The notes beneath the pieces are model-generated. The model saw only the letters and a list, made by a program, of their open reading frames with translations. It was not told the origin of the DNA and did no database searches. A program made the translations under genes and the position numbers. 64,000 bases of DNA, taken from assembly GCA_008273105.1 (NCBI GenBank), contig GCA_008273105.1_4080.1. One strand, 5' to 3'. The stretch's first letter is position 1, and each line of letters starts with the position of its first letter. Shown here piece after piece: positions 16,996 to 28,456 of this stretch. The stretch comes from a phage.

Positions 16996-17175
16996 TTAAT
17001 CACCTATACATAAGTACTCGATTGATGGTTTACCATTAACTAACACAATTCCAGTGTGAGTTAATACACAGTTGTCGGGAGCTTCTTCAAATACTGATAC
17101 GTAAATGTATGAACCATTACTAACTGAACAAGATAATACCATAAGAACTGCGATTAGTACAAGTAAAAATTTCAT
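16996..17175 (-). CDS. small secreted or membrane-anchored protein, about 59 aa
   Basis: Hand-translated ORF MKFLLVLIAVLMVLSCSVSNGSY... with hydrophobic signal-like N-terminus; below track cutoff. Confidence 0.35.
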   Translation of the reverse strand: MKFLLVLIAVLMVLSCSVSNGSYIYVSVFEEAPDNCVLTHTGIVLVNGKPSIEYLCIGD

Positions 17176-17181
17176 ATGAAC

Positions 17182-17829
17182 CTACTTTTTTGATTTATGT
17201 AATGCAATTTGTACTCGCGTAATGAACTCACGCTCTACTTCATCTGAATTAACACCATCGTATTGTGTTTTGAATAGTTCCATAGCTTTGATAGCCATTT
17301 GCACTGAAATTTCAGTAATACTTTCAGTATTGGTAGTCTCAAATACATTTCTGATGGATAGTTCACCATCATCAGCATGTTCTTGTTGAACCGTGTTGTT
17401 TTGTTCATCAATGTAACGTAAAGCTTTGTACTCTGCTTTTGTTAGATTTTCATACCAACGTGGGTGGTGGAACAAATCATGCATTGTAACTTTTGCTGCT
17501 TCCATGAGAAGTAATAGCTCTTCATTTCTGCGAATATGTTTTTCTTCACCTTTATGATTTTTGTAAGTATATGCACAACGCATAATGGCTAATCGAACTT
17601 CACCTGCTTTGGTGATAGTGTATGAATGTATTGCATTATCATAATCACTTTCCCATTTCTGACCAGCATATTCGTACCAAAGTTCATTAGTTTCCCATTT
17701 AATGAAATCAAATTCTAACAAACTGTCAATCAACTTAGCCAAATTACCACTGTACTCACGGCTAATGATATTGAAACCACCATTGTACTTTGCAAGGTAC
17801 AGAATCTTTTCTTGAGTTACATTTTTCAT
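17182..17829 (-). CDS. hypothetical protein (215 aa)
   Basis: Track ORF; no recognisable motif. Confidence 0.5.
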   Translation of the reverse strand: MKNVTQEKILYLAKYNGGFNIISREYSGNLAKLIDSLLEFDFIKWETNELWYEYAGQKWESDYDNAIHSYTITKAGEVRLAIMRCAYTYKNHKGEEKHIRRNEELLLLMEAAKVTMHDLFHHPRWYENLTKAEYKALRYIDEQNNTVQQEHADDGELSIRNVFETTNTESITEISVQMAIKAMELFKTQYDGVNSDEVEREFITRVQIALHKSKK

Positions 17830-18167
17830 TACATGTAATCCTTGATGTATTTTAGCAGTTTAGATTTCTCTTCGGTACTTAATGATTTCTTGTTCATTAA
17901 GTGTTTCATTTCTTGACGTTCAATTTCTTCACATCTTTTAGATTCAGCTTCAATTCGTGTATTATATTCTTCGTCAGTTTCTTCTCTGGTCCAAATTACA
18001 TTGTATCCATGAAAACCGCCGTAACCACTGTCTGGTGAAAGACTAATGTGACCGTTATATTCAGCACGATACTTATTAAGAGTGTCAATAAAGGTATCAA
18101 TGCCACACGGTTCAATTTCAATATAACCAATCACTACAGTAACGTCAATTTTGTTCATAAAGTTCAC
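17829..18167 (-). CDS. hypothetical protein (112 aa)
   Basis: Track ORF; start/stop overlap with neighbour. Confidence 0.5.
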   Translation of the reverse strand: MNFMNKIDVTVVIGYIEIEPCGIDTFIDTLNKYRAEYNGHISLSPDSGYGGFHGYNVIWTREETDEEYNTRIEAESKRCEEIERQEMKHLMNKKSLSTEEKSKLLKYIKDYM

Positions 18168-18185
18168 CTATAAAATTAGGGAGCA

Positions 18186-18743
18186 TTAGCTCCCTTTGTA
18201 TTGATGTTTACGTTTAGTACTGTATTTCCAGCCAGTACTATGTCTTGTTCTGATATCGTCCCAATACGATGGTAATGAACGCATCTTACGTCTTCCACGT
18301 ATATCAGGTTCCCCCTCATCCTTCAGTACTGCACAAGCCATACGACGCTCTTGTTGTGTCTTAGGACGCTTGTATCGGGAGTGGTTATGTTTGTACATAT
18401 ACGAACGCTTATGTCGCCATTCCGTATCACGAGCTTTACGTTTATGTTCCCAGTACTCATTATAGAGTATCATGTATTCACCCATAAGTAAATCAGGAGA
18501 TACAAGTAATCCTTTTTCAGTACAAAGATAATAACCCACAAACTTTTCTGGAAACATTTCGTAATAGAAACGGTTCTTCCAAAATGTTTCACGATTCTTT
18601 TTGTTGAATTCAGCTAAATCGAATTTCATCTTACTGTGGAAACGGTCTATACCGTCATGTTCCGCAATGTACTCTAACAGATTATCAATAATCTCAACTT
18701 TACCAGAATCGTGATACAACGTAAATGTTTGGTCAAAAAACAT
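18186..18743 (-). CDS. hypothetical protein with highly basic C-terminus (185 aa)
   Basis: Track ORF; C-terminal R/K-rich tail (KRPKTQQERR...RGRRKMR...KRKHQYKGS). Confidence 0.5.
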   Translation of the reverse strand: MFFDQTFTLYHDSGKVEIIDNLLEYIAEHDGIDRFHSKMKFDLAEFNKKNRETFWKNRFYYEMFPEKFVGYYLCTEKGLLVSPDLLMGEYMILYNEYWEHKRKARDTEWRHKRSYMYKHNHSRYKRPKTQQERRMACAVLKDEGEPDIRGRRKMRSLPSYWDDIRTRHSTGWKYSTKRKHQYKGS

Positions 18744-18839
18744 ATGAAATCTCCTTTAAGTTAAAATAACCTAATGGAAAGTCATTCTTCCTTTAATACA
18801 TGTTCTCATGATTTGTTCCTTTTGTCAAGATATAGATAT

Positions 18840-18866
18840 AAAAAATCCCTGCCAACAGACAGGGAC
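18840..18866 (-). terminator. rho-independent terminator
   Basis: Minus-strand hairpin ccctgtctgttggcaggg followed by ATTTTTT, downstream of the 62-aa basic protein gene. Confidence 0.5.
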
Positions 18867-18969
18867 GAAAAACTGAAATAACACATGGAGTTCTTTTTAA
18901 TTTAATAAAAAGTATTATTATTCTTATAAAAGTATTTATTAAGAACTCCACAATATGTCTTCAAATGAA

Positions 18970-19158
18970 TCAAAAACCTTTCTGAGCTACTAGTTCACGG
19001 TACTGTGCACGAGTTAGTACACCTTGTTTGCGTAGAGCTTGAAGACCGGATAGGGTTTCACTCTTACGTTGTTCGTACATACGTTGTTCTTTAGATTGAA
19101 TAACTTTCTCTTTCTTAACTTTTGCTACTGGTTCTTTTTTCTTAGGTTGTTTAGCCAT
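18970..19158 (-). CDS. small basic protein (62 aa), possibly nucleic-acid binding
   Basis: Lys-rich N-terminus MAKQPKKKEPVAKVKKEK; strong RBS AAGGAGAT upstream. Confidence 0.5.
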   Translation of the reverse strand: MAKQPKKKEPVAKVKKEKVIQSKEQRMYEQRKSETLSGLQALRKQGVLTRAQYRELVAQKGF

Positions 19159-19197
19159 TTTATATCTCCTTCTGTATTATGATAACAACATTATATC

Positions 19198-19220
19198 ATG
19201 TATGGGACATAATGTCCCAT
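19198..19220 (-). promoter_or_regulatory. perfect 11-bp inverted repeat overlapping a promoter-like -35/-10
   Basis: gtatgggacat-a-atgtcccatac palindrome; on the minus strand it is followed by TATAAT with about 17-nt spacing to GGGACA inside the palindrome. Confidence 0.4.
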
Positions 19221-19226
19221 ACAATA

Positions 19227-20666
19227 TTACATATTTTCTTCAGCAAATTCTGCAAGTGGTGAACGAACAACACCTTCTAGTTCGATGACACGACAACCTG
19301 CCCAATCTTTAAACTTCTCAGTTACATATGTCAAACCACTGTTAACAGGACTAATAAACTTACTGTCAATCTGACTCAAGTTACCCATAATTACTACTTT
19401 ACAGTTTAATCCTGCTCGTGTCAAGATTGTTTTAGCTTGTGCAGGTGTAATGTTTTGGAATTCATCAACTACTAGAATAGTGTTGGTGAATGAACGTCCA
19501 CGTACAAAGTTTAGTGCTTTAAATTGAATAACATTACGTTTCATAATCTCTTCAATACTACCTTGAGGGTTAGCATCATCTTTATGAAGAAACTCTAACG
19601 CGTCAATTGCGGCTCCACAGAATGGAATCACTTTTTCTGCTTCTGAACCTGGCAAGAAACCAATATCTTCAAACTGTGAGTCTTGAGTTTTAGAGAAGAT
19701 GATTCGGTCGTATTTACGTTTTTCCAGTACTAATTCTAATGCAGTAGCAATCGTAATTAGTGTTTTACCAGTACCAGCAGAACCTAGCAGTACTGTTAGA
19801 TGTACATCAGGATCGAGAATACTGTTGATGGCGAGTGCTTGTTGGATATTCTTTGCTTTAATATCCCATACTTTAGCACGTAAAGCTACTGATTGTCCAA
19901 TATCTTGGAATACCAAAATATCTTCTGGTGTTAGTGTTCCATCATCTTCCTCAATTGCTGATTGACCTTCGTACACAAATAATACGTCTGCATCATCATA
20001 TAGATAATCACCGATGCATAGATTTTGTGGAAGCAAATGTTCAATCAAGCTTTTAGAAATGTAATGATACAAACGACGACCAACTTGTTCGGATTGAATA
20101 TTAGTATTGGTTAAGTTGCTATATACTTCCCAAAAATTAATTTCCAAATGGTGTTGACCAATGTGAATCAAATCACTATCACCAATAACAATATCATGGC
20201 GATAATCTTGTACCTCGACACCATAACTTAGTGCTTTGATACGCATGTTGATATCACGAGTTACCAGTACTGATTCTGTTGCTAAAGCTACCAGAATGAT
20301 TTTATCATCAGGTACTGTGCTTTTGAGAAGGGTTTGAACTTTCTCTTCTGAACCTTTAGTACGAATTAGTGCTTCAGCTTCTTCGTTTGTAATAACAAAC
20401 AATTTGCTATCAGGATTCATATTGGTATGAACATCAGCAATATTAACACCAGTACTACTAATCTCATCATGTGATGCATCTGCAATAATTGCTTCAATGT
20501 TACGAATAGCAACACGAGCATCGCGTGAAACATCTACATTACGACTCTTAATTGAATCCAATTCTTCCAGTACTGTAAATGGTAGAATGATTGCAGCACC
20601 ATCAAAAGCAATAGATGCATTAGGGTCAGATAGTAGTACGTTTGTGTCAATTGTATATTTTTTCAT
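19227..20666 (-). CDS. phoH: PhoH-like ATPase with N-terminal PIN domain
   Basis: Walker A LLGSAGTGKTLITIA; PIN-like N-terminus (MKKYTIDTNVLLSDPNA...LEELD); 479 aa. Confidence 0.8.
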   Translation of the reverse strand: MKKYTIDTNVLLSDPNASIAFDGAAIILPFTVLEELDSIKSRNVDVSRDARVAIRNIEAIIADASHDEISSTGVNIADVHTNMNPDSKLFVITNEEAEALIRTKGSEEKVQTLLKSTVPDDKIILVALATESVLVTRDINMRIKALSYGVEVQDYRHDIVIGDSDLIHIGQHHLEINFWEVYSNLTNTNIQSEQVGRRLYHYISKSLIEHLLPQNLCIGDYLYDDADVLFVYEGQSAIEEDDGTLTPEDILVFQDIGQSVALRAKVWDIKAKNIQQALAINSILDPDVHLTVLLGSAGTGKTLITIATALELVLEKRKYDRIIFSKTQDSQFEDIGFLPGSEAEKVIPFCGAAIDALEFLHKDDANPQGSIEEIMKRNVIQFKALNFVRGRSFTNTILVVDEFQNITPAQAKTILTRAGLNCKVVIMGNLSQIDSKFISPVNSGLTYVTEKFKDWAGCRVIELEGVVRSPLAEFAEENM

Positions 20667-20726
20667 AAAACATCCTTGAGTTATGAGTACATCCTTGTAC
20701 TCGACTAATGTTATTGACTCGGATTA

Positions 20727-21029
20727 TTACATATTTGGTTCGTATTCAACATAGCAACGTGAACCTCGAACCTTTTCTTCCCAGCACTCCTGGTAAACAA
20801 GTTGACCAATTGAAACTGGTTCTCTTGATAGTCCATTACGTACTTCACCACTTTGGGTTTTATACATAAATGAACATTTGGACTCGCTACATTGTCCTAA
20901 ACTAACAACTTCTGCGGTATTGTAGTGAATGTTGGTACGCTTAGTGTTCTCGTGATACTGTCCGAACCAAAGAACTCCTGCACCTAACAGAACAGTACAA
21001 ATAAGACTTTTGATGTGTGTTTGAATCAT
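20727..21029 (-). CDS. small membrane-anchored Cys-containing protein (100 aa)
   Basis: N-terminal hydrophobic segment LICTVLLGAGVLWF. Confidence 0.45.
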   Translation of the reverse strand: MIQTHIKSLICTVLLGAGVLWFGQYHENTKRTNIHYNTAEVVSLGQCSESKCSFMYKTQSGEVRNGLSREPVSIGQLVYQECWEEKVRGSRCYVEYEPNM

Positions 21030-21346
21030 AATGAGTTAAATCCATTGTTTAAGTATGTTTCAATATTAATTTTACCAACAGGATTACTACTGTGAACAAA
21101 GTACTCAAACGGTTCTTTAATATTATTATCAAACATATAATCAATAAGAAACTTAGCAAAAGAATATCCAGTCTTTTCGTCTTCGCTCACATCACCCAAG
21201 TCATGGTCGAATGATACAAATGCTGGAATTCCATTTTCAATAACATATTCACATGCACTTTTAAAGTCACGACATACCACCATATCTTGGTTTGGATAAT
21301 ATAGATTTGCATCACGAATATCATCCAAAAACATTGAGTAAGACAT
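21026..21346 (-). CDS. hypothetical protein, possibly receiver-fold-like (106 aa)
   Basis: Track ORF co-located with the Sir2-like and Nudix-like genes; contains FDHDLGD and HSSNPVGK; fold assignment speculative. Confidence 0.4.
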   Translation of the reverse strand: MSYSMFLDDIRDANLYYPNQDMVVCRDFKSACEYVIENGIPAFVSFDHDLGDVSEDEKTGYSFAKFLIDYMFDNNIKEPFEYFVHSSNPVGKINIETYLNNGFNSL

Positions 21347-21355
21347 GTTAAACTC

Positions 21356-21907
21356 CTATAGATAACTAATTAGTAAGTTTTCTTTTTGAACCAGATACTC
21401 CAATTCTTGTTTTGCTGTACCGATGAAGTTCTGTGTCATAAGATTATTATATCCCGCTTCTCGATTTTGTCCCTTAGAATAACGCGAAATATGACATAAA
21501 TTTACACCAGCAACTTCTGCACTTGCATGTTTAGCATTAGTGTATCCATCTCTAATGTGTTTCAACTCGTCATAGGTTACTTCATAGCTAAAACTGTGAC
21601 TGTTTGCACCTGGGTAAATTTCAAAAGTTTTGAGTGGTCGAAGATGGGAAACAAAAATATTGTAATCCATTTCTTCTTGAACTTCACGACGCAACGCATC
21701 TTCTAGTGAGATATCAGTACTTTCTACGGTTCCACCACATCCACCAAGAAGACCATCCCATCGTAATTGCAGTAATACTAAATTTACTTCTGGTATATCA
21801 TTCAACTCATAGTTTTTGTAAGGGTTGCATTTTCTTGCAAAGAAATAACAAAATACAAAATTTGCACGTGTGCCATATTCACCAAAGGGAACTTCTTTAA
21901 CACTCAT
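21356..21907 (-). CDS. putative Nudix-family hydrolase (degenerate Nudix box)
   Basis: GGCGGTVE...RREVQEEMDY approximates the G-x5-E-x7-R-E-U-x-E-E-x-G-U box but with a longer spacer and D in place of G. Confidence 0.4.
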   Translation of the reverse strand: MSVKEVPFGEYGTRANFVFCYFFARKCNPYKNYELNDIPEVNLVLLQLRWDGLLGGCGGTVESTDISLEDALRREVQEEMDYNIFVSHLRPLKTFEIYPGANSHSFSYEVTYDELKHIRDGYTNAKHASAEVAGVNLCHISRYSKGQNREAGYNNLMTQNFIGTAKQELEYLVQKENLLISYL

Positions 21908-22662
21908 TTCATACGTTCCTTAATTATAGTCTCTAGATGCGGTATTGCTTTGGTTGCTGGCTTGATAACTTTTTCATTAAACAAAAAATCATTATCATTT
22001 TTACGAATGTTAACATTAACACTATAACATGGTAATGCTGCTGCTAATCTCGACCATACCAGTACTGTATCGCTACTACCAATTACAATAACTGTATCAT
22101 TTTCATTAAGAGATTTCAACACATTATTTCGTTCTTCGTAAATTGGTAAGCGAATACCATCAACATAACGATGATATTCTCCAATCATTACTACATTTGG
22201 TTTGGCAAAAACATCATGTTTTGGTATGTATGGTTCGTATCCGCAGTTAATAACATTATAATCATCAGAATTGATACTATAATTTTCAATAACTTCACAC
22301 AAGTTTCCATGAAGTTTAAGCTCATGACCACCAATACGAGTATAAAGATCGTCCATGTTAGAAGTCATATGAAGGAAGCAATCACCATATTGATCTTCTA
22401 ACGATTTTATAAAATAATGCATTGCATTTGGTTCGCATTGTCCCAATTTTACACGTAATGTATTATAGAAAGAATGAACAACATGATATTTTGTAGTTAA
22501 ACTAGCAATGTTACATACATCATTAATTTTAAATGTATCCCACAAACCATCATCAAATCGAAAAGGTTCCATACCACTTTCAACAGAAAGTCCTGCACCT
22601 GATATAATCAGTAATCGCTTTTTACCTTCATTGCTTATAAATTTTTCTGATATCATATTCAA
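21904..22662 (-). CDS. Sir2-family (sirtuin-like) NAD-dependent protein
   Basis: ISGAGLSVESGMEPFRFDDGLWD matches the GAGIS-x-x-SGIP-x-FR signature; TSNMDDLYTRIGG and LKLHG (candidate catalytic His) in expected order; VVMIGE and IVIGSS blocks. Confidence 0.6.
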   Translation of the reverse strand: MNMISEKFISNEGKKRLLIISGAGLSVESGMEPFRFDDGLWDTFKINDVCNIASLTTKYHVVHSFYNTLRVKLGQCEPNAMHYFIKSLEDQYGDCFLHMTSNMDDLYTRIGGHELKLHGNLCEVIENYSINSDDYNVINCGYEPYIPKHDVFAKPNVVMIGEYHRYVDGIRLPIYEERNNVLKSLNENDTVIVIGSSDTVLVWSRLAAALPCYSVNVNIRKNDNDFLFNEKVIKPATKAIPHLETIIKERMK

Positions 22663-22887: not shown

Positions 22888-23481
22888 TTAATATTTTAAA
22901 ACATCAAACTCTTCGCTTACGCTTGTTACATTATCACTAACAATTTTAAAAATTGATTTGATACGTTCGTGTAGTGGTTTTTTAGATTCGTTCTCAACTT
23001 CAATATATGCTTGCATTGCTGCAATTGCATGATATGTCCCACTACCTACTGCGGTAATTCTTGTTTTAGGTTGTAGTACTGAAAAGTCTTCTTGAACTTC
23101 ATAGATTGTATGATTGTGGAGAATGATAAATTGTCCACCACCTACATCTTGTGATGCATCTCGTGCACCCCATTCTTCTTTAAACATTTGACGAATGATT
23201 GGAATAACTTTAAGAACCAAATATTGTGAAAATGTTTGACTAGCATCTTGTTCAGGTAAATTAAGGTTATAATTTAACAACTGACCCATACGAAATGATG
23301 TAGTATAACCCAATGCCATTACTTCTTTAGTTCTAGTTAGTCCATCATCATGTAACTTGATAAATTCTTTCTCGAATACCTTTGGCTCAGTTTGAACAGT
23401 TTTTGTAAATCCATTGCTTCCTAACTTATCCCCAGCAATAAAAGAACTTACTCCGTCAGTGTGTGCAATAATACAGGTCAT
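22888..23481 (-). CDS. HslV/proteasome-like N-terminal-Thr peptidase (about 197 aa)
   Basis: From internal ATG at 23481 the product begins MTCIIAHTDGVSSFIAGDKLGS (compare HslV TTIVSVRRNGHVVIAGDGQ); C-terminal AVGSGTYHAIAAMQA resembles HslV AIGSGGPYAQAAA; track ORF extends to 23550. Confidence 0.5.
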   Translation of the reverse strand: MTCIIAHTDGVSSFIAGDKLGSNGFTKTVQTEPKVFEKEFIKLHDDGLTRTKEVMALGYTTSFRMGQLLNYNLNLPEQDASQTFSQYLVLKVIPIIRQMFKEEWGARDASQDVGGGQFIILHNHTIYEVQEDFSVLQPKTRITAVGSGTYHAIAAMQAYIEVENESKKPLHERIKSIFKIVSDNVTSVSEEFDVLKY

Positions 23482-23808: not shown

Positions 23809-24432
23809 TTATTGTTTGACTGAACCGTAAAAAACCAGTTCTGGTTTTGTTAATATTACAACATCTTCACCACGAGAACGACTAACTCTAAATAGAACTT
23901 CTGGTGGGATTCCATTTGCTGCATATAGTGAAAAAAGGAAACCTACCTTTGTTGCCATTTCTTCGGTAAAAGTTGATAGCTGTCTTACAGACACAAATGA
24001 ATTATCACCATCAGTAACATTACTTTTAATCGAAATGTTATGAAGACCCAGTACTGAGCGATTTGTCATATATCGCTTTTCGGGAGATACACTAAAGAAT
24101 ACCACAGTACATGCTGAATTGCAATACCTAGAAACAATTAAATTTATCCCATTGTCTCTAACAAAGTTTGCCATTCGAATACCTGCATCAAAATCACCAC
24201 CAGGAGATGTAATTGTGATGGTATCATAGTGTTCTTTATCATACAACTCTATCATTCTCTTGAGTGACCCATCTGTAATATCTGATATGAAATATACATT
24301 TCGGGTTTCAGGATTATACTTTATCACATTTTTACTTTCAATACCAGCACTGGCTGGAAAATTTATTAACAATAGAAACATCGCTGCTTGTATCACTTCA
24401 AGCCATAGTCTTTTCATATAACAAGTCCTCAA
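23809..24432 (-). CDS. signal-peptide-bearing ClpP/SppA-fold protein
   Basis: N-terminal hydrophobic signal (AAMFLLLINFPASAG); ITSPGGDFDAGIRMANF resembles the ClpP/S49 SPGG block; catalytic triad not clearly identifiable. Confidence 0.4.
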   Translation of the reverse strand: MRTCYMKRLWLEVIQAAMFLLLINFPASAGIESKNVIKYNPETRNVYFISDITDGSLKRMIELYDKEHYDTITITSPGGDFDAGIRMANFVRDNGINLIVSRYCNSACTVVFFSVSPEKRYMTNRSVLGLHNISIKSNVTDGDNSFVSVRQLSTFTEEMATKVGFLFSLYAANGIPPEVLFRVSRSRGEDVVILTKPELVFYGSVKQ

Positions 24433-24642: not shown

Positions 24643-25020
24643 ATGAAAGCTATCGCAGCACAAGGTAAACTACCATTCAATATCGGCGGGTTTTGTGTAA
24701 CCGCAGCTAATATAAACGGTGAATTGAAATATAACTTGAACATCTTTAATCAACGTTCTAGTTGTGTTTACGATCTCATTGATACTGATTTTAATGTTTA
24801 TCGTTTTGTAACTATCACTAGTTATGATAAAGATAAAATTAGATTAGATGCATCTAAAACAGCATTGGAAATTGCACCAACTCTAGCCAAAAACACTTTT
24901 TGTATTAAGATTGACGATAGTGCATTTGCCGAATCATTCCAGTTTCATAAAATTAAATTGAGTACTGGTGCGATGAAATATCACCCTTGGGATTTGTATT
25001 ATTGTAACCTCCCTGGTTAA
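24643..25020 (+). CDS. hypothetical protein (125 aa); only convincing plus-strand gene in the window
   Basis: RBS AAAAGGAAAT 6-8 nt before ATG; followed at once by a bidirectional terminator; flanked by a 210-nt divergent intergenic region. Confidence 0.55.
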   Translation: MKAIAAQGKLPFNIGGFCVTAANINGELKYNLNIFNQRSSCVYDLIDTDFNVYRFVTITSYDKDKIRLDASKTALEIAPTLAKNTFCIKIDDSAFAESFQFHKIKLSTGAMKYHPWDLYYCNLPG

Positions 25021-26909: not shown

Positions 26910-27356
26910 TTATTTTTGATATGGGGTGTACTGATATTTTTCACAATCAGCGACAGTTAGAACACCTTCATCATAACCATATTGAAGTACAAGGTCAAAT
27001 GCTTTATCAACCATAGCAACAACATCTTTATAACGAACAATCTTATGAGATTGATTCTCAACTGCTTTCATAATCCCCATTAGCAACCAGCGACCTTCAT
27101 CGGTGTGTAATTTAGCAAAGCGTGGACGCTTTGTCGCTGCCATAATATCAGTCCATTCAGCTTTAAAAATGTGTGGACGTTTTGGAATATCATATAGTGT
27201 AGTAGGGAAAGTTACATTATTTTTCTTCATTGCTTCTGCTTGTGCTGCACGATAGCCCTGACGATATAATGGATGCTGCATTTTTAGCTGTTCAGCACTT
27301 AGAACTACTTTTGCTTTGTATGCGTCATAACCATCTTTATATTGTGCATTGGACAT
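26910..27356 (-). CDS. hypothetical protein (148 aa)
   Basis: Track ORF. Confidence 0.5.
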   Translation of the reverse strand: MSNAQYKDGYDAYKAKVVLSAEQLKMQHPLYRQGYRAAQAEAMKKNNVTFPTTLYDIPKRPHIFKAEWTDIMAATKRPRFAKLHTDEGRWLLMGIMKAVENQSHKIVRYKDVVAMVDKAFDLVLQYGYDEGVLTVADCEKYQYTPYQK

Positions 27357-27357
27357 A

Positions 27358-27675
27358 TTATTCTTTTACCTCATCAGTTTGAATGTATTTTTTGTCAGAG
27401 AATGTACCGTGTTCTTTACGCACAGCTTCTGCATGTTGAACCGCATCAACTGGATTAATGTTCTTTTTAATTAGTACTTCCTTCATTAATTCAAGTACAA
27501 TTGCAAAACCATTCAGCACACGCTCAGATTCATCTACATTTTTTAATTCAAGTGCTACTGCACTAATTTGATCGAACGCAACATTAATAAAATCGGAATC
27601 TTCTAATACATTTGCTACTTCCGTATTATTACGTACTAGTACTTTCATATAATCTCCACAAAGATGATGCCCCAT
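27358..27675 (-). CDS. hypothetical protein (105 aa)
   Basis: Track ORF. Confidence 0.5.
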   Translation of the reverse strand: MGHHLCGDYMKVLVRNNTEVANVLEDSDFINVAFDQISAVALELKNVDESERVLNGFAIVLELMKEVLIKKNINPVDAVQHAEAVRKEHGTFSDKKYIQTDEVKE

Positions 27676-27696: not shown

Positions 27697-28392
27697 TTAC
27701 ACCCACTCTTCTACACCGCCGCGACGCTTAACTAAGTACTTACCTTCTTCGTTACGTGGTCCAAGAATAATACCATCAATGAAACCATGTTCACCATATT
27801 CAAGTGCTTCTTCTGCATTTAACCACAAATCGCGGTCAGCATCTTTTAGTAATTGTTCATGTGATACACCTACAGCTTCTGCAATTTCTTTGGTCAACAA
27901 TGTATTCAGTGCATCAGAATGTTGTAGGGAAATCTTCTGGTCTGTAATTAGACCTTGTGTACCAGAACTTACTTGGTGACACATGAAGTATGAGCGTTTA
28001 CCACCTAAACGGAAACCTTTAGTCCCAATAACAGATTGTGTATAGCAACCCATTGATGCTGCATAACCCATAACTACAGTGCGAATTGGGGAAATACAAG
28101 ACTTAGCAACATCTGCAATACCCAAACCTGCGTGTACTGAACCACCCGGTGAACTAATGTAGAATGTAATAGGGGAATCACCTTGTGAGTCTAACCATAC
28201 CAATTGTTGTTTGATGATATGTGCCATTTGATCATTGAAATCAGTATCAAGGAAAATGATACGGTCTTGCATCATACGAGATGCTAGATCATATGTACGT
28301 TCTGAACCATTAACTTTCTCAACTACGTAAGGAATAGAAATGTTACGTACTTCGCCATTAGCATAACCACCAAACATGAATTGTTCAACCAT
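27697..28392 (-). CDS. clpP: ATP-dependent Clp protease proteolytic subunit homolog (ClpP)
   Basis: ISSPGGSVHAGLGIADV...VVMGYAASMGCY...FMCHQVSSG...DADRDLWL aligns block-for-block with ClpP including the Ser, His and Asp triad positions. Confidence 0.8.
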   Translation of the reverse strand: MVEQFMFGGYANGEVRNISIPYVVEKVNGSERTYDLASRMMQDRIIFLDTDFNDQMAHIIKQQLVWLDSQGDSPITFYISSPGGSVHAGLGIADVAKSCISPIRTVVMGYAASMGCYTQSVIGTKGFRLGGKRSYFMCHQVSSGTQGLITDQKISLQHSDALNTLLTKEIAEAVGVSHEQLLKDADRDLWLNAEEALEYGEHGFIDGIILGPRNEEGKYLVKRRGGVEEWV

Positions 28393-28456
28393 TGTTAATT
28401 TCCTCTATTATTTCGTTGTAGTGAGTATTATATCACTAAGATTTAAAATGTCCAAA

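Follow-up and report, generated by a model that had tools for sequence, protein, structure and literature searches.

We analyzed a gene for a ClpP-type peptidase (clpP), which lies on the minus strand at positions 27697–28392 of a phage DNA stretch of 64,000 nucleotides (contig GCA_008273105.1_4080.1 of assembly GCA_008273105.1); the whole stretch is hereafter called the window. The 2 kb around clpP was 97.9–99.8% identical to the 20 best-matching genomes of Escherichia and Salmonella Asteriusvirus jumbo phages, including PBECO4, 121Q, G17, phAPEC6 and slurp01, and the entire window aligned to PBECO4 with 94–99% identity. Judging from this nucleotide identity, the window belongs to the genome of an Asteriusvirus, a Rak2-like Escherichia coli jumbo phage near PBECO4 and 121Q. 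The gene, its catalytic codons and its upstream signals are given below. Triad numbering was taken from E. coli ClpP, whose mature residues S97, H122 and D171 were verified directly and then aligned with the phage protein, and counts out of 66 refer to members of the phage ClpP clade described in the following section.

27697..28392, minus strand: ClpP coding sequence in the list of open reading frames (ORFs), 231 amino acids plus stop, ATG start, TAA stop
28054..28056, minus strand: codon of catalytic Ser113 (GYAASMG), aligned to E. coli Ser97; Ser in 66/66 clade members
27976..27978, minus strand: codon of catalytic His139 (MCHQV), aligned to E. coli His122; His in 66/66 clade members
27829..27837, minus strand: codons of Asp186-Arg187-Asp188; Asp188 (27829–27831) is catalytic and corresponds to E. 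coli Asp171, Arg187 to Arg170; both in 66/66 clade members
28401..28406, minus strand: Shine-Dalgarno sequence AGAGGA, 8 nt 5' of the clpP ATG, read from the sequence
28427..28454, minus strand: sigma-70-like site TGGACA-16-TGnTATAAT with an extended -10 element (11/12 in a consensus scan), in the 64-bp intergenic gap 5' of clpP

An earlier note on this DNA, made from its letters alone, had described an intact phage ClpP with all three contexts of the catalytic triad preserved, and this description was confirmed. The motifs VMGYAASMGCY, SYFMCHQVSSG and LLKDADRDLWLN were all found in the product of 27697–28392, Ser113, His139 and Asp188 aligned with the E. coli triad, and Pfam PF00574 (Clp_protease) matched far beyond chance (E = 4e-41, 141.3 bits against a cut-off of 20.2), spanning ClpP residues 29–209 and profile positions 2–179 of 182. 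The ClpP models of NCBIfam gave about 155 bits (E = 2e-45), and a phmmer search against PDB sequences retrieved ClpPs exclusively, with that of Thermus thermophilus (6hwm, E = 1e-36) at the top. An AlphaFold2 (AF2) model built with 69 homologs had a mean predicted local distance difference test score (pLDDT) of 92.1 and a predicted template modelling (TM) score of 0.85. When compared with solved ClpPs by Foldseek, the model gave target-normalised TM scores of 0.90–0.96 and root-mean-square deviations of 1.2–2.0 Å over about 193 columns, the handle helix included; the predicted fold has a head domain, a handle consisting of a long helix plus a strand, and an N-terminal axial loop. An additional domain on some of the ClpP homologs, PF25145 (NfeD1b_N), was considered and rejected as a sub-threshold cross-match inside one fold clan.

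The protein belongs to a divergent clade of phage ClpPs

The clade was delimited in a search that covered 5.8 billion proteins. The retrieved ClpPs fell into a tight clade of 58–96% identity, mostly encoded on contigs of up to 370 kb, a sister group of 48–53% identity, and cellular-type sequences of at most 47% identity. In a neighbour-joining tree the core phage clade was recovered in 97 of 100 bootstraps, and the core together with the sister group, which includes the phage XaC1, in 99 of 100. The phylogeny against host ClpP for which the earlier note had asked thus places the phage clade apart from the host protein, with 35% identity between the window's ClpP and that of E. coli. On its profile scores, the protein represents a divergent viral clade rather than an ortholog-level match to bacterial ClpP.

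Within the clade, the protein was 100% identical in 121Q, G17 and slurp01, and 66–75% identical to the versions of KP13-7, K64-1, GAP32, Munch and Erwinia phages, with which it also shares a syntenic block. The ClpP of XaC1 was only 45% identical. That of Atu_ph07, with a canonical pocket and 64% identity to E. coli ClpP, is a different, proteobacterial-type ClpP. The G+C content at third codon positions was 0.26 for phage clpP and likewise 0.26 for phage clpA, similar to neighbouring phage genes and different from host clpP (0.57), indicating that phage clpP is a long resident rather than a recent capture.

The triad, the GG oxyanion region and Arg187 were invariant in 66/66 clade members, and that they have stayed unchanged over such deep divergence points to selection on catalysis. 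The N-terminal loop residues P21, V23, E25, E31, R32, D35, S38 and R39 were also essentially invariant among these 66 sequences. Handle residues are conserved in the clade as well, which, together with Arg187, would be consistent with an assembly of two stacked heptameric rings. Clade-specific features were observed in addition, namely HQV in place of HQP, a 3-residue insertion (EYG-EHG-F), and extensions at both termini:

28336..28392, minus strand: N-terminal 19-residue extension before the axial-loop segment IPYVVEK..., from alignments to E. coli ClpP and the clade
27700..27765, minus strand: C-terminal extension, residues 210–231, LGPRNEEGKYLVKRRGGVEEWV, with no counterpart in E. coli ClpP

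The N-terminal extension is variable within the clade, is disordered in the model (pLDDT below 50 at residues 1–10) and can be described as propeptide-like. The C-terminal tail of 22 residues is kept across the phage clade including XaC1, starts directly after the residue equivalent to pocket residue Leu189 of E. coli, and is predicted to be ordered (pLDDT above 90 in the AF2 model), forming two short strands.

Related genomes encode a ClpA and a ClpS-like protein

Outside the part of the genome represented by the window, PBECO4 encodes a protein of 762 amino acids, gp539, that matched the ClpA model TIGR02639 end to end (E = 1e-226) and contains the Pfam domains AAA, AAA_lid_9, AAA_2 and ClpB_D2-small. 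Along its whole length it shares 44% identity with E. coli ClpA, and in both rings the Walker A and B motifs and the pore loops are intact. By its docking tripeptide, described below, gp539 is a ClpP-binding unfoldase and not a ClpB-type disaggregase. A second PBECO4 protein, gp457 (181 amino acids, L008:6685-7230), contains a ClpS domain that scored just above the Pfam cut-off (24.7 versus 23 bits) and is called a protease adaptor by several depositors. Its ClpS core is flanked by approximately 70 extra N-terminal and 35 extra C-terminal residues, and the motif at the N-degron pocket reads DDPTTHA versus NDDYTPM in E. coli ClpS, so that its substrate specificity, if it is an adaptor, may differ from that of ClpS.

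Regarding other Clp-type ATPases, no ClpX, Lon or HslU was detected when the E. coli proteins served as tblastn queries on the PBECO4 genome and the window, the only matches besides ClpA being weak cross-matches to the AAA modules of ClpA. Other annotated PBECO4 ATPases were rejected as Clp unfoldases, since gp484 is DnaB-like and gp010 is a weak generic AAA match. A further annotated ATPase, gp528, adjoins a metallophosphoesterase gene.

ClpP, ClpA and the ClpS-like protein are co-distributed. In the phage collection, ClpP and ClpA, both counted from 60% identity upward, occurred in 70 and 71 records, respectively, and the ClpS-like protein was present in 72, all within a single lineage. Per-genus counts were Escherichia 34, Klebsiella 10, Salmonella 8 and Erwinia 8 for both ClpP and the ClpS-like protein, and 33, 11, 10 and 8, respectively, for ClpA. 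With these nearly matching counts, the trio is co-inherited. In slurp01 and G17, whose ClpP is identical to that of the window, both ClpA and the ClpS-like protein are present at 99.9–100% identity.

The docking pocket of ClpP and the docking loop of ClpA have both changed

We then compared the pocket of ClpP into which AAA+ partners dock. The E. coli residues Y60, Y62, F82, I90, M92, F112, L114 and L189 correspond to T, Y, S, V, M, L, G and I in the phage protein. Three of these canonical positions are changed throughout the clade, namely Tyr60 to Thr, Phe82 to Asn or Ser, and Leu114 to Gly, and positions 82 and 114 are non-hydrophobic or small throughout the clade. The codons of the latter two are:

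28000..28002, minus strand: codon of Gly131, at docking-pocket residue Leu114 of E. coli; Gly in 62/66 clade members versus Leu in 40/43 cellular ClpPs
28099..28101, minus strand: codon of Ser98, at docking-pocket residue Phe82 of E. coli; Asn in 44 and Ser in 10 of 66 clade members versus Tyr or Phe in 39/43 cellular ClpPs

The tripeptide of phage ClpA at the position of the E. coli docking loop (IGL, residues 617–619) was IGM in PBECO4, IGV in Muenster, LGM in CBB, and IGF in both PA5oct and Atu_ph07. Gly at pocket position 114, observed in three lineages, went together with ClpA loops ending in Met or Val, and the IGF loop was found where the pocket has Phe82/Leu114 (Atu_ph07) or Tyr82/Ser114 (MIJ3/PA5oct). 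This pattern suggests that the ClpP pocket and the ClpA loop have co-evolved.

Phage ClpP is highly unlikely to be the head-maturation protease

RefSeq names the ClpP of PBECO4 and 121Q 'head maturation protease', and phrog_94, which carries the same label, is the best PHROG for the protein (E = 5e-44, 153 bits). If the name were correct, phage ClpP would be a head-maturation or virion-associated protease that processes capsid or internal proteins in the procapsid, in the manner of ClpP-related prohead proteases (NF045542; phrog_94/133/2976). Such proteases have in common with phage ClpP a ClpP/crotonase-type core and Ser-His chemistry, and the profiles cross-match. Mass spectrometry of CBB virions also recorded the ClpP CBB_104, with one unique peptide and 4.5% coverage (PMC5259590). 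The phrog_94 label was nevertheless rejected as functional evidence. In a control, the housekeeping ClpP of E. coli matched phrog_94 with an even higher score (E = 1e-45, 158 bits), so the label has no discriminating power. It is likely that phrog_94 was the source of the RefSeq name, and 'head maturation protease' in the records of NC_027364 gp105, 121Q, JP4, E9.1, WPEC3 and others is probably a propagated mis-annotation.

The distinction drawn in the earlier note, between a free ClpP and a prohead maturation protease, was resolved by profile search in favour of the free ClpP. NF045542 ('head maturation protease, ClpP-related') gave only 51.3 bits against a cut-off of 120, compared with the about 155 bits of the ClpP models. 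ClpP-related prohead proteases are encoded between portal and capsid genes, are often fused to scaffold or capsid sequences and are active inside procapsids, whereas phage ClpP aligns over its full length to cellular ClpP, N-terminal loops and handle included, and is encoded far from the head module. In PBECO4 the head module lies more than 220 kb from clpP and has its own protease, gp520, which belongs to Pfam Peptidase_S77 (E = 1e-20), the family of the prohead core protease gp21 of T4, and is encoded between the major head and portal genes. In phAPEC6 virions (PMC7247149), the corresponding S77 protease gp227c was detected together with capsid, scaffold and portal proteins, and ClpP (gp353c) was not among the 62 proteins. 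The maturation role in the Asteriusvirus group is thus already filled by PBECO4 gp520 and phAPEC6 gp227c, which are unrelated to ClpP in fold and family and whose gene lies outside the window; clpP itself is located among replication and nucleotide-metabolism genes in four genera. A head-maturation role of phage ClpP is therefore largely refuted, and we regard it as highly improbable.

A phage-encoded ClpA/ClpS/ClpP machine as the probable context of phage ClpP

The reading that we favour, and consider probable, is that phage ClpP supplies the proteolytic core of a ClpA/ClpS/ClpP machine encoded by the phage, which would be cytoplasmic and non-structural and would not serve capsid maturation. 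ClpP, a self-compartmentalising serine peptidase of MEROPS family S14, would be made in catalytically competent form during infection, possibly early and by the host RNA polymerase, and would assemble as a tetradecamer. A hexamer of phage ClpA would dock on it by inserting its IGM loops into the remodelled pocket, unfold substrates and feed them into the ClpP chamber, leading to degradation of selected host or phage proteins, and the ClpS-domain protein may deliver or select the substrates.

Such a machine would have much in common with ClpAP(S) of E. coli. The peptidases agree in fold, Ser-His-Asp triad, N-terminal axial loops and handle helix. On the side of the partners there is again a ClpA with two rings, which has Walker A/B motifs, pore loops and a docking loop of the pattern hydrophobic-Gly-hydrophobic, as well as a ClpS-domain protein. 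It differs in that phage ClpP is only 35–37% and ClpA 44% identical to the E. coli proteins, that the ClpA loop is IGM instead of IGL, and that ClpP has Ser/Asn and Gly at pocket positions Phe82 and Leu114, the HQV motif, the 3-residue insertion and the ordered C-terminal tail of 22 residues. The ClpS-like protein is longer, with a changed pocket motif, and the genes are dispersed in the virus genome.

The earlier note had instead proposed host partners, i.e. that phage ClpP could form mixed complexes with host ClpP or ClpX. In its general form, this alternative states that the protein is driven by host ClpX or ClpA, or enters mixed rings or tetradecamers with host ClpP, and thereby redirects or boosts host Clp proteolysis. 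The axial-loop residues for communication with AAA+ partners (P21, V23, E25, E31, R32, D35, S38, R39) are conserved, several residues of the pocket are unchanged or have undergone conservative substitutions (Y78, V106, M108, L129, I209), the handle and the Asp/Arg pair are ClpP-like, and the predicted fold is almost superposable on E. coli ClpP. In bacteria, heteromeric ClpP1/ClpP2 complexes form at similar levels of divergence. On the other hand, the phage group has its own ClpA with a docking loop and its own ClpS-like protein, both co-inherited with ClpP; Phe82 and Leu114, conserved in cellular ClpPs, are Ser/Asn and Gly in the clade; the conserved C-terminal extension emerges at the rim of the pocket; and identity to host ClpP is as low as 35%. 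A phage-internal pairing of ClpA and ClpP is more economical, because the relatives encode a ClpA with an IGM loop together with a ClpS-like protein and because the pocket is altered. Host ClpX or ClpP as partners were accordingly not supported as proposed, the near-identical genomes encoding partners of their own and two hydrophobic pocket positions being replaced, and we judge this alternative to be unlikely, although less so than a role in head maturation.

We also considered phage ClpP as a decoy or regulator that titrates host Clp ATPases or adaptors, or poisons host ClpP rings, and in this way shields phage proteins. The altered pocket and the additional C-terminal tail could shift the behaviour of partners, and Iyer et al. 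placed phage ClpP among patchy peptidases probably aimed at the host (PMC7824862). A decoy is difficult to reconcile with the triad, the GG oxyanion region and Arg187 being invariant in 66/66 clade members, which argues for selection on catalysis, and a matching phage unfoldase exists; this explanation appears very improbable to us.

Several observations weigh against the phage-encoded machine and should be set beside the evidence for it. Phage ClpP scored below the curated cut-offs of the ClpP models (TIGR00493, 151.6 versus 308.6 bits; NF001368, 155.2 versus 249). ClpA and the ClpS-like protein lie outside the window, and their presence in the window's own genome is inferred from genomes that are 94–99.8% identical; moreover, the genes for ClpP, ClpA and the ClpS-like protein are dispersed and do not share an operon. 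Most of the docking-pocket residues and all of the N-terminal loop residues are typical of ClpP, so that host ClpX or ClpA could dock too, and the link between pocket and loop comes from about six genomes, which represent perhaps one or two independent events. The single peptide of CBB_104 hints at some association with the virion. With respect to early expression, a promoter scan around clpP gave a number of sigma-70-like sites no higher than in shuffled sequence, and the site 5' of clpP is suggestive only.

A stronger form of the phage-encoded machine, which we put forward tentatively as a possibility with the odds against it, is that Rak2-like phages carry a self-contained, orthogonal ClpS-ClpA-ClpP machine whose interface (the IGM/IGV/LGM loop, the Gly131/Ser98 pocket and the C-terminal tail) has co-evolved and is insulated from host ClpX, ClpA and ClpP. 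If so, the phage would run selective proteolysis without competing with the host Clp network or being controlled by it, e.g. for N-degron-type removal of host defence or housekeeping proteins, and the two conserved ORFs that follow clpP could encode dedicated adaptors, regulators or substrates.

Relation to previous reports and significance

The clpP gene and its identity as ClpP were already known, identical proteins having been deposited as ClpP in public records. Annotated jumbo-phage ClpPs include PBECO4 gp105, 121Q 464, phAPEC6 gp353c, those of RaK2, GAP32_103 and CBB_104, and Atu_ph07 gp676. The window's gene does not differ at the gene level from the annotated Rak2-like ones; as described above, that of Atu_ph07 is of a different type. 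Iyer et al. (2021) listed ClpP among patchily distributed jumbo-phage peptidases that are probably host-directed and treated ClpS and ClpA separately (PMC7824862), and Attai et al. (2018) listed the Clp genes of Atu_ph07 and reported ClpA to be conserved in Rak2-like phages (PMC6102473). The changes in pocket and loop and the C-terminal tail are not described in these published accounts of phage Clp genes. Our literature search found no experimental study of any phage ClpP and none on an Asteriusvirus Clp protease; the fEgEco12 paper makes no mention of Clp, and the mentions of clpP in PhageExpressionAtlas refer to host genes. What is new here is modest: the co-inheritance of the trio, the retention of the ClpA docking loop, the clade-specific pocket, loop and tail, and the tracing of the name 'head maturation protease' to an annotation artefact.

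In itself, the clpP gene is ordinary. Few viruses have a regulated ATP-dependent protease of their own. A full phage set of unfoldase, peptidase and adaptor would mean that the proteome of the infected cell is remodelled on the phage's terms, for instance by removal of host factors or proteins of defence. With an interface orthogonal to that of the host, the pair would also be a natural insulated Clp pair for protein-degradation engineering.

Gene neighbourhood and other protease genes in the window

The neighbours of clpP, all on one strand with it, encode DNA ligase, a metallophosphoesterase, dCMP deaminase, Pnk, RNA ligase, NrdDG, Sir2 and Nudix proteins, and the block from the ligase through clpP to the dCMP deaminase is syntenic in GAP32, KP13-7 and XaC1. 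Two small genes follow directly downstream of clpP:

27358..27648, minus strand: conserved ORF of 96 amino acids (phrog_16159), first gene downstream of clpP; homologous and syntenic in GAP32, KP13-7 and XaC1
26910..27356, minus strand: conserved ORF of 148 amino acids (phrog_16190), second gene downstream of clpP; 45–58% identical and syntenic in GAP32, KP13-7 and XaC1

A Pfam search of the small ORFs flanking clpP gave no match, and the 96- and 148-residue products could be accessory proteins linked to ClpP or simply neighbours that have been conserved. In the KP13-7 lineage, clpP is separated from the conserved downstream ORF by an inserted ORF of 312 amino acids, and the name clpP_2 given by the depositor of KP13-7 (OP617745, locus L022) implies a second clpP-like gene there.

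Two further protease-like genes are found in the window on the same strand:

22888..23481, minus strand: divergent Ntn peptidase of the HslV/proteasome-beta type, 197 amino acids; family profile against PDB HslV, E = 3e-7; phrog_1040
23809..24417, minus strand: ClpP-fold protein bearing a signal peptide, 202 amino acids; Pfam Clp_protease 17.4 bits, under the cut-off of 20.2

Both had been pointed out in the earlier note, and both were recovered here with different degrees of support. The product of 22888–23481 gave no Pfam match but matched phrog_1040 ('peptidase HslV family') with E = 4e-24, and Met1-Thr2, Asp18 and Lys34 were invariant in 41 aligned homologs; their counterparts in HslV and the beta subunits of proteasomes are the catalytic residues Thr1, Asp17 and Lys33. 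Since no HslU was detected in PBECO4 or the window by tblastn, this protein would need host HslU or act alone. For the product of 23809–24417, support was weaker. It opens with a signal-peptide-like segment, MKRLWLEVIQAAMFLLLINFPASAG, and has only 13 database homologs, 11 of which were traced to E. coli, Asteriusvirus or unnamed assemblies. Ser101 and His126 are invariant, the profile match to ClpP is weak (E = 0.004), and the AF2 model reached a pLDDT of 66, with ClpPs as the best Foldseek matches (E = 5e-7, TM score about 0.55). It is possibly a periplasmic serine protease. With ClpP, the HslV-like protein and the ClpP-fold protein in the window, and ClpA and the ClpS-like protein in its relatives, the phage is indeed rich in parts of compartmentalised proteases, as the earlier note had stated.

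An all-versus-all BLAST of the ORFs of the window detected no large paralogous family. The gene at 24643–25020 (125 amino acids) is on the plus strand, unlike all other annotated genes around clpP, which are on the minus strand. Its counterpart in phAPEC6, gp347, is present in virions with 75% sequence coverage, and RefSeq lists the PBECO4 protein as a virion structural protein, so that a structural gene stands alone here amid genes for metabolism and proteases. At about 17000–22000 (equivalents of PBECO4 gp086–gp095), upstream of the protease genes, genes annotated as encoding a WGR-domain protein, a PhoH-like protein found in phAPEC6 virions, a Nudix hydrolase and Sir2 are clustered, possibly a NAD/ADP-ribose-related set for host takeover or counter-defence.

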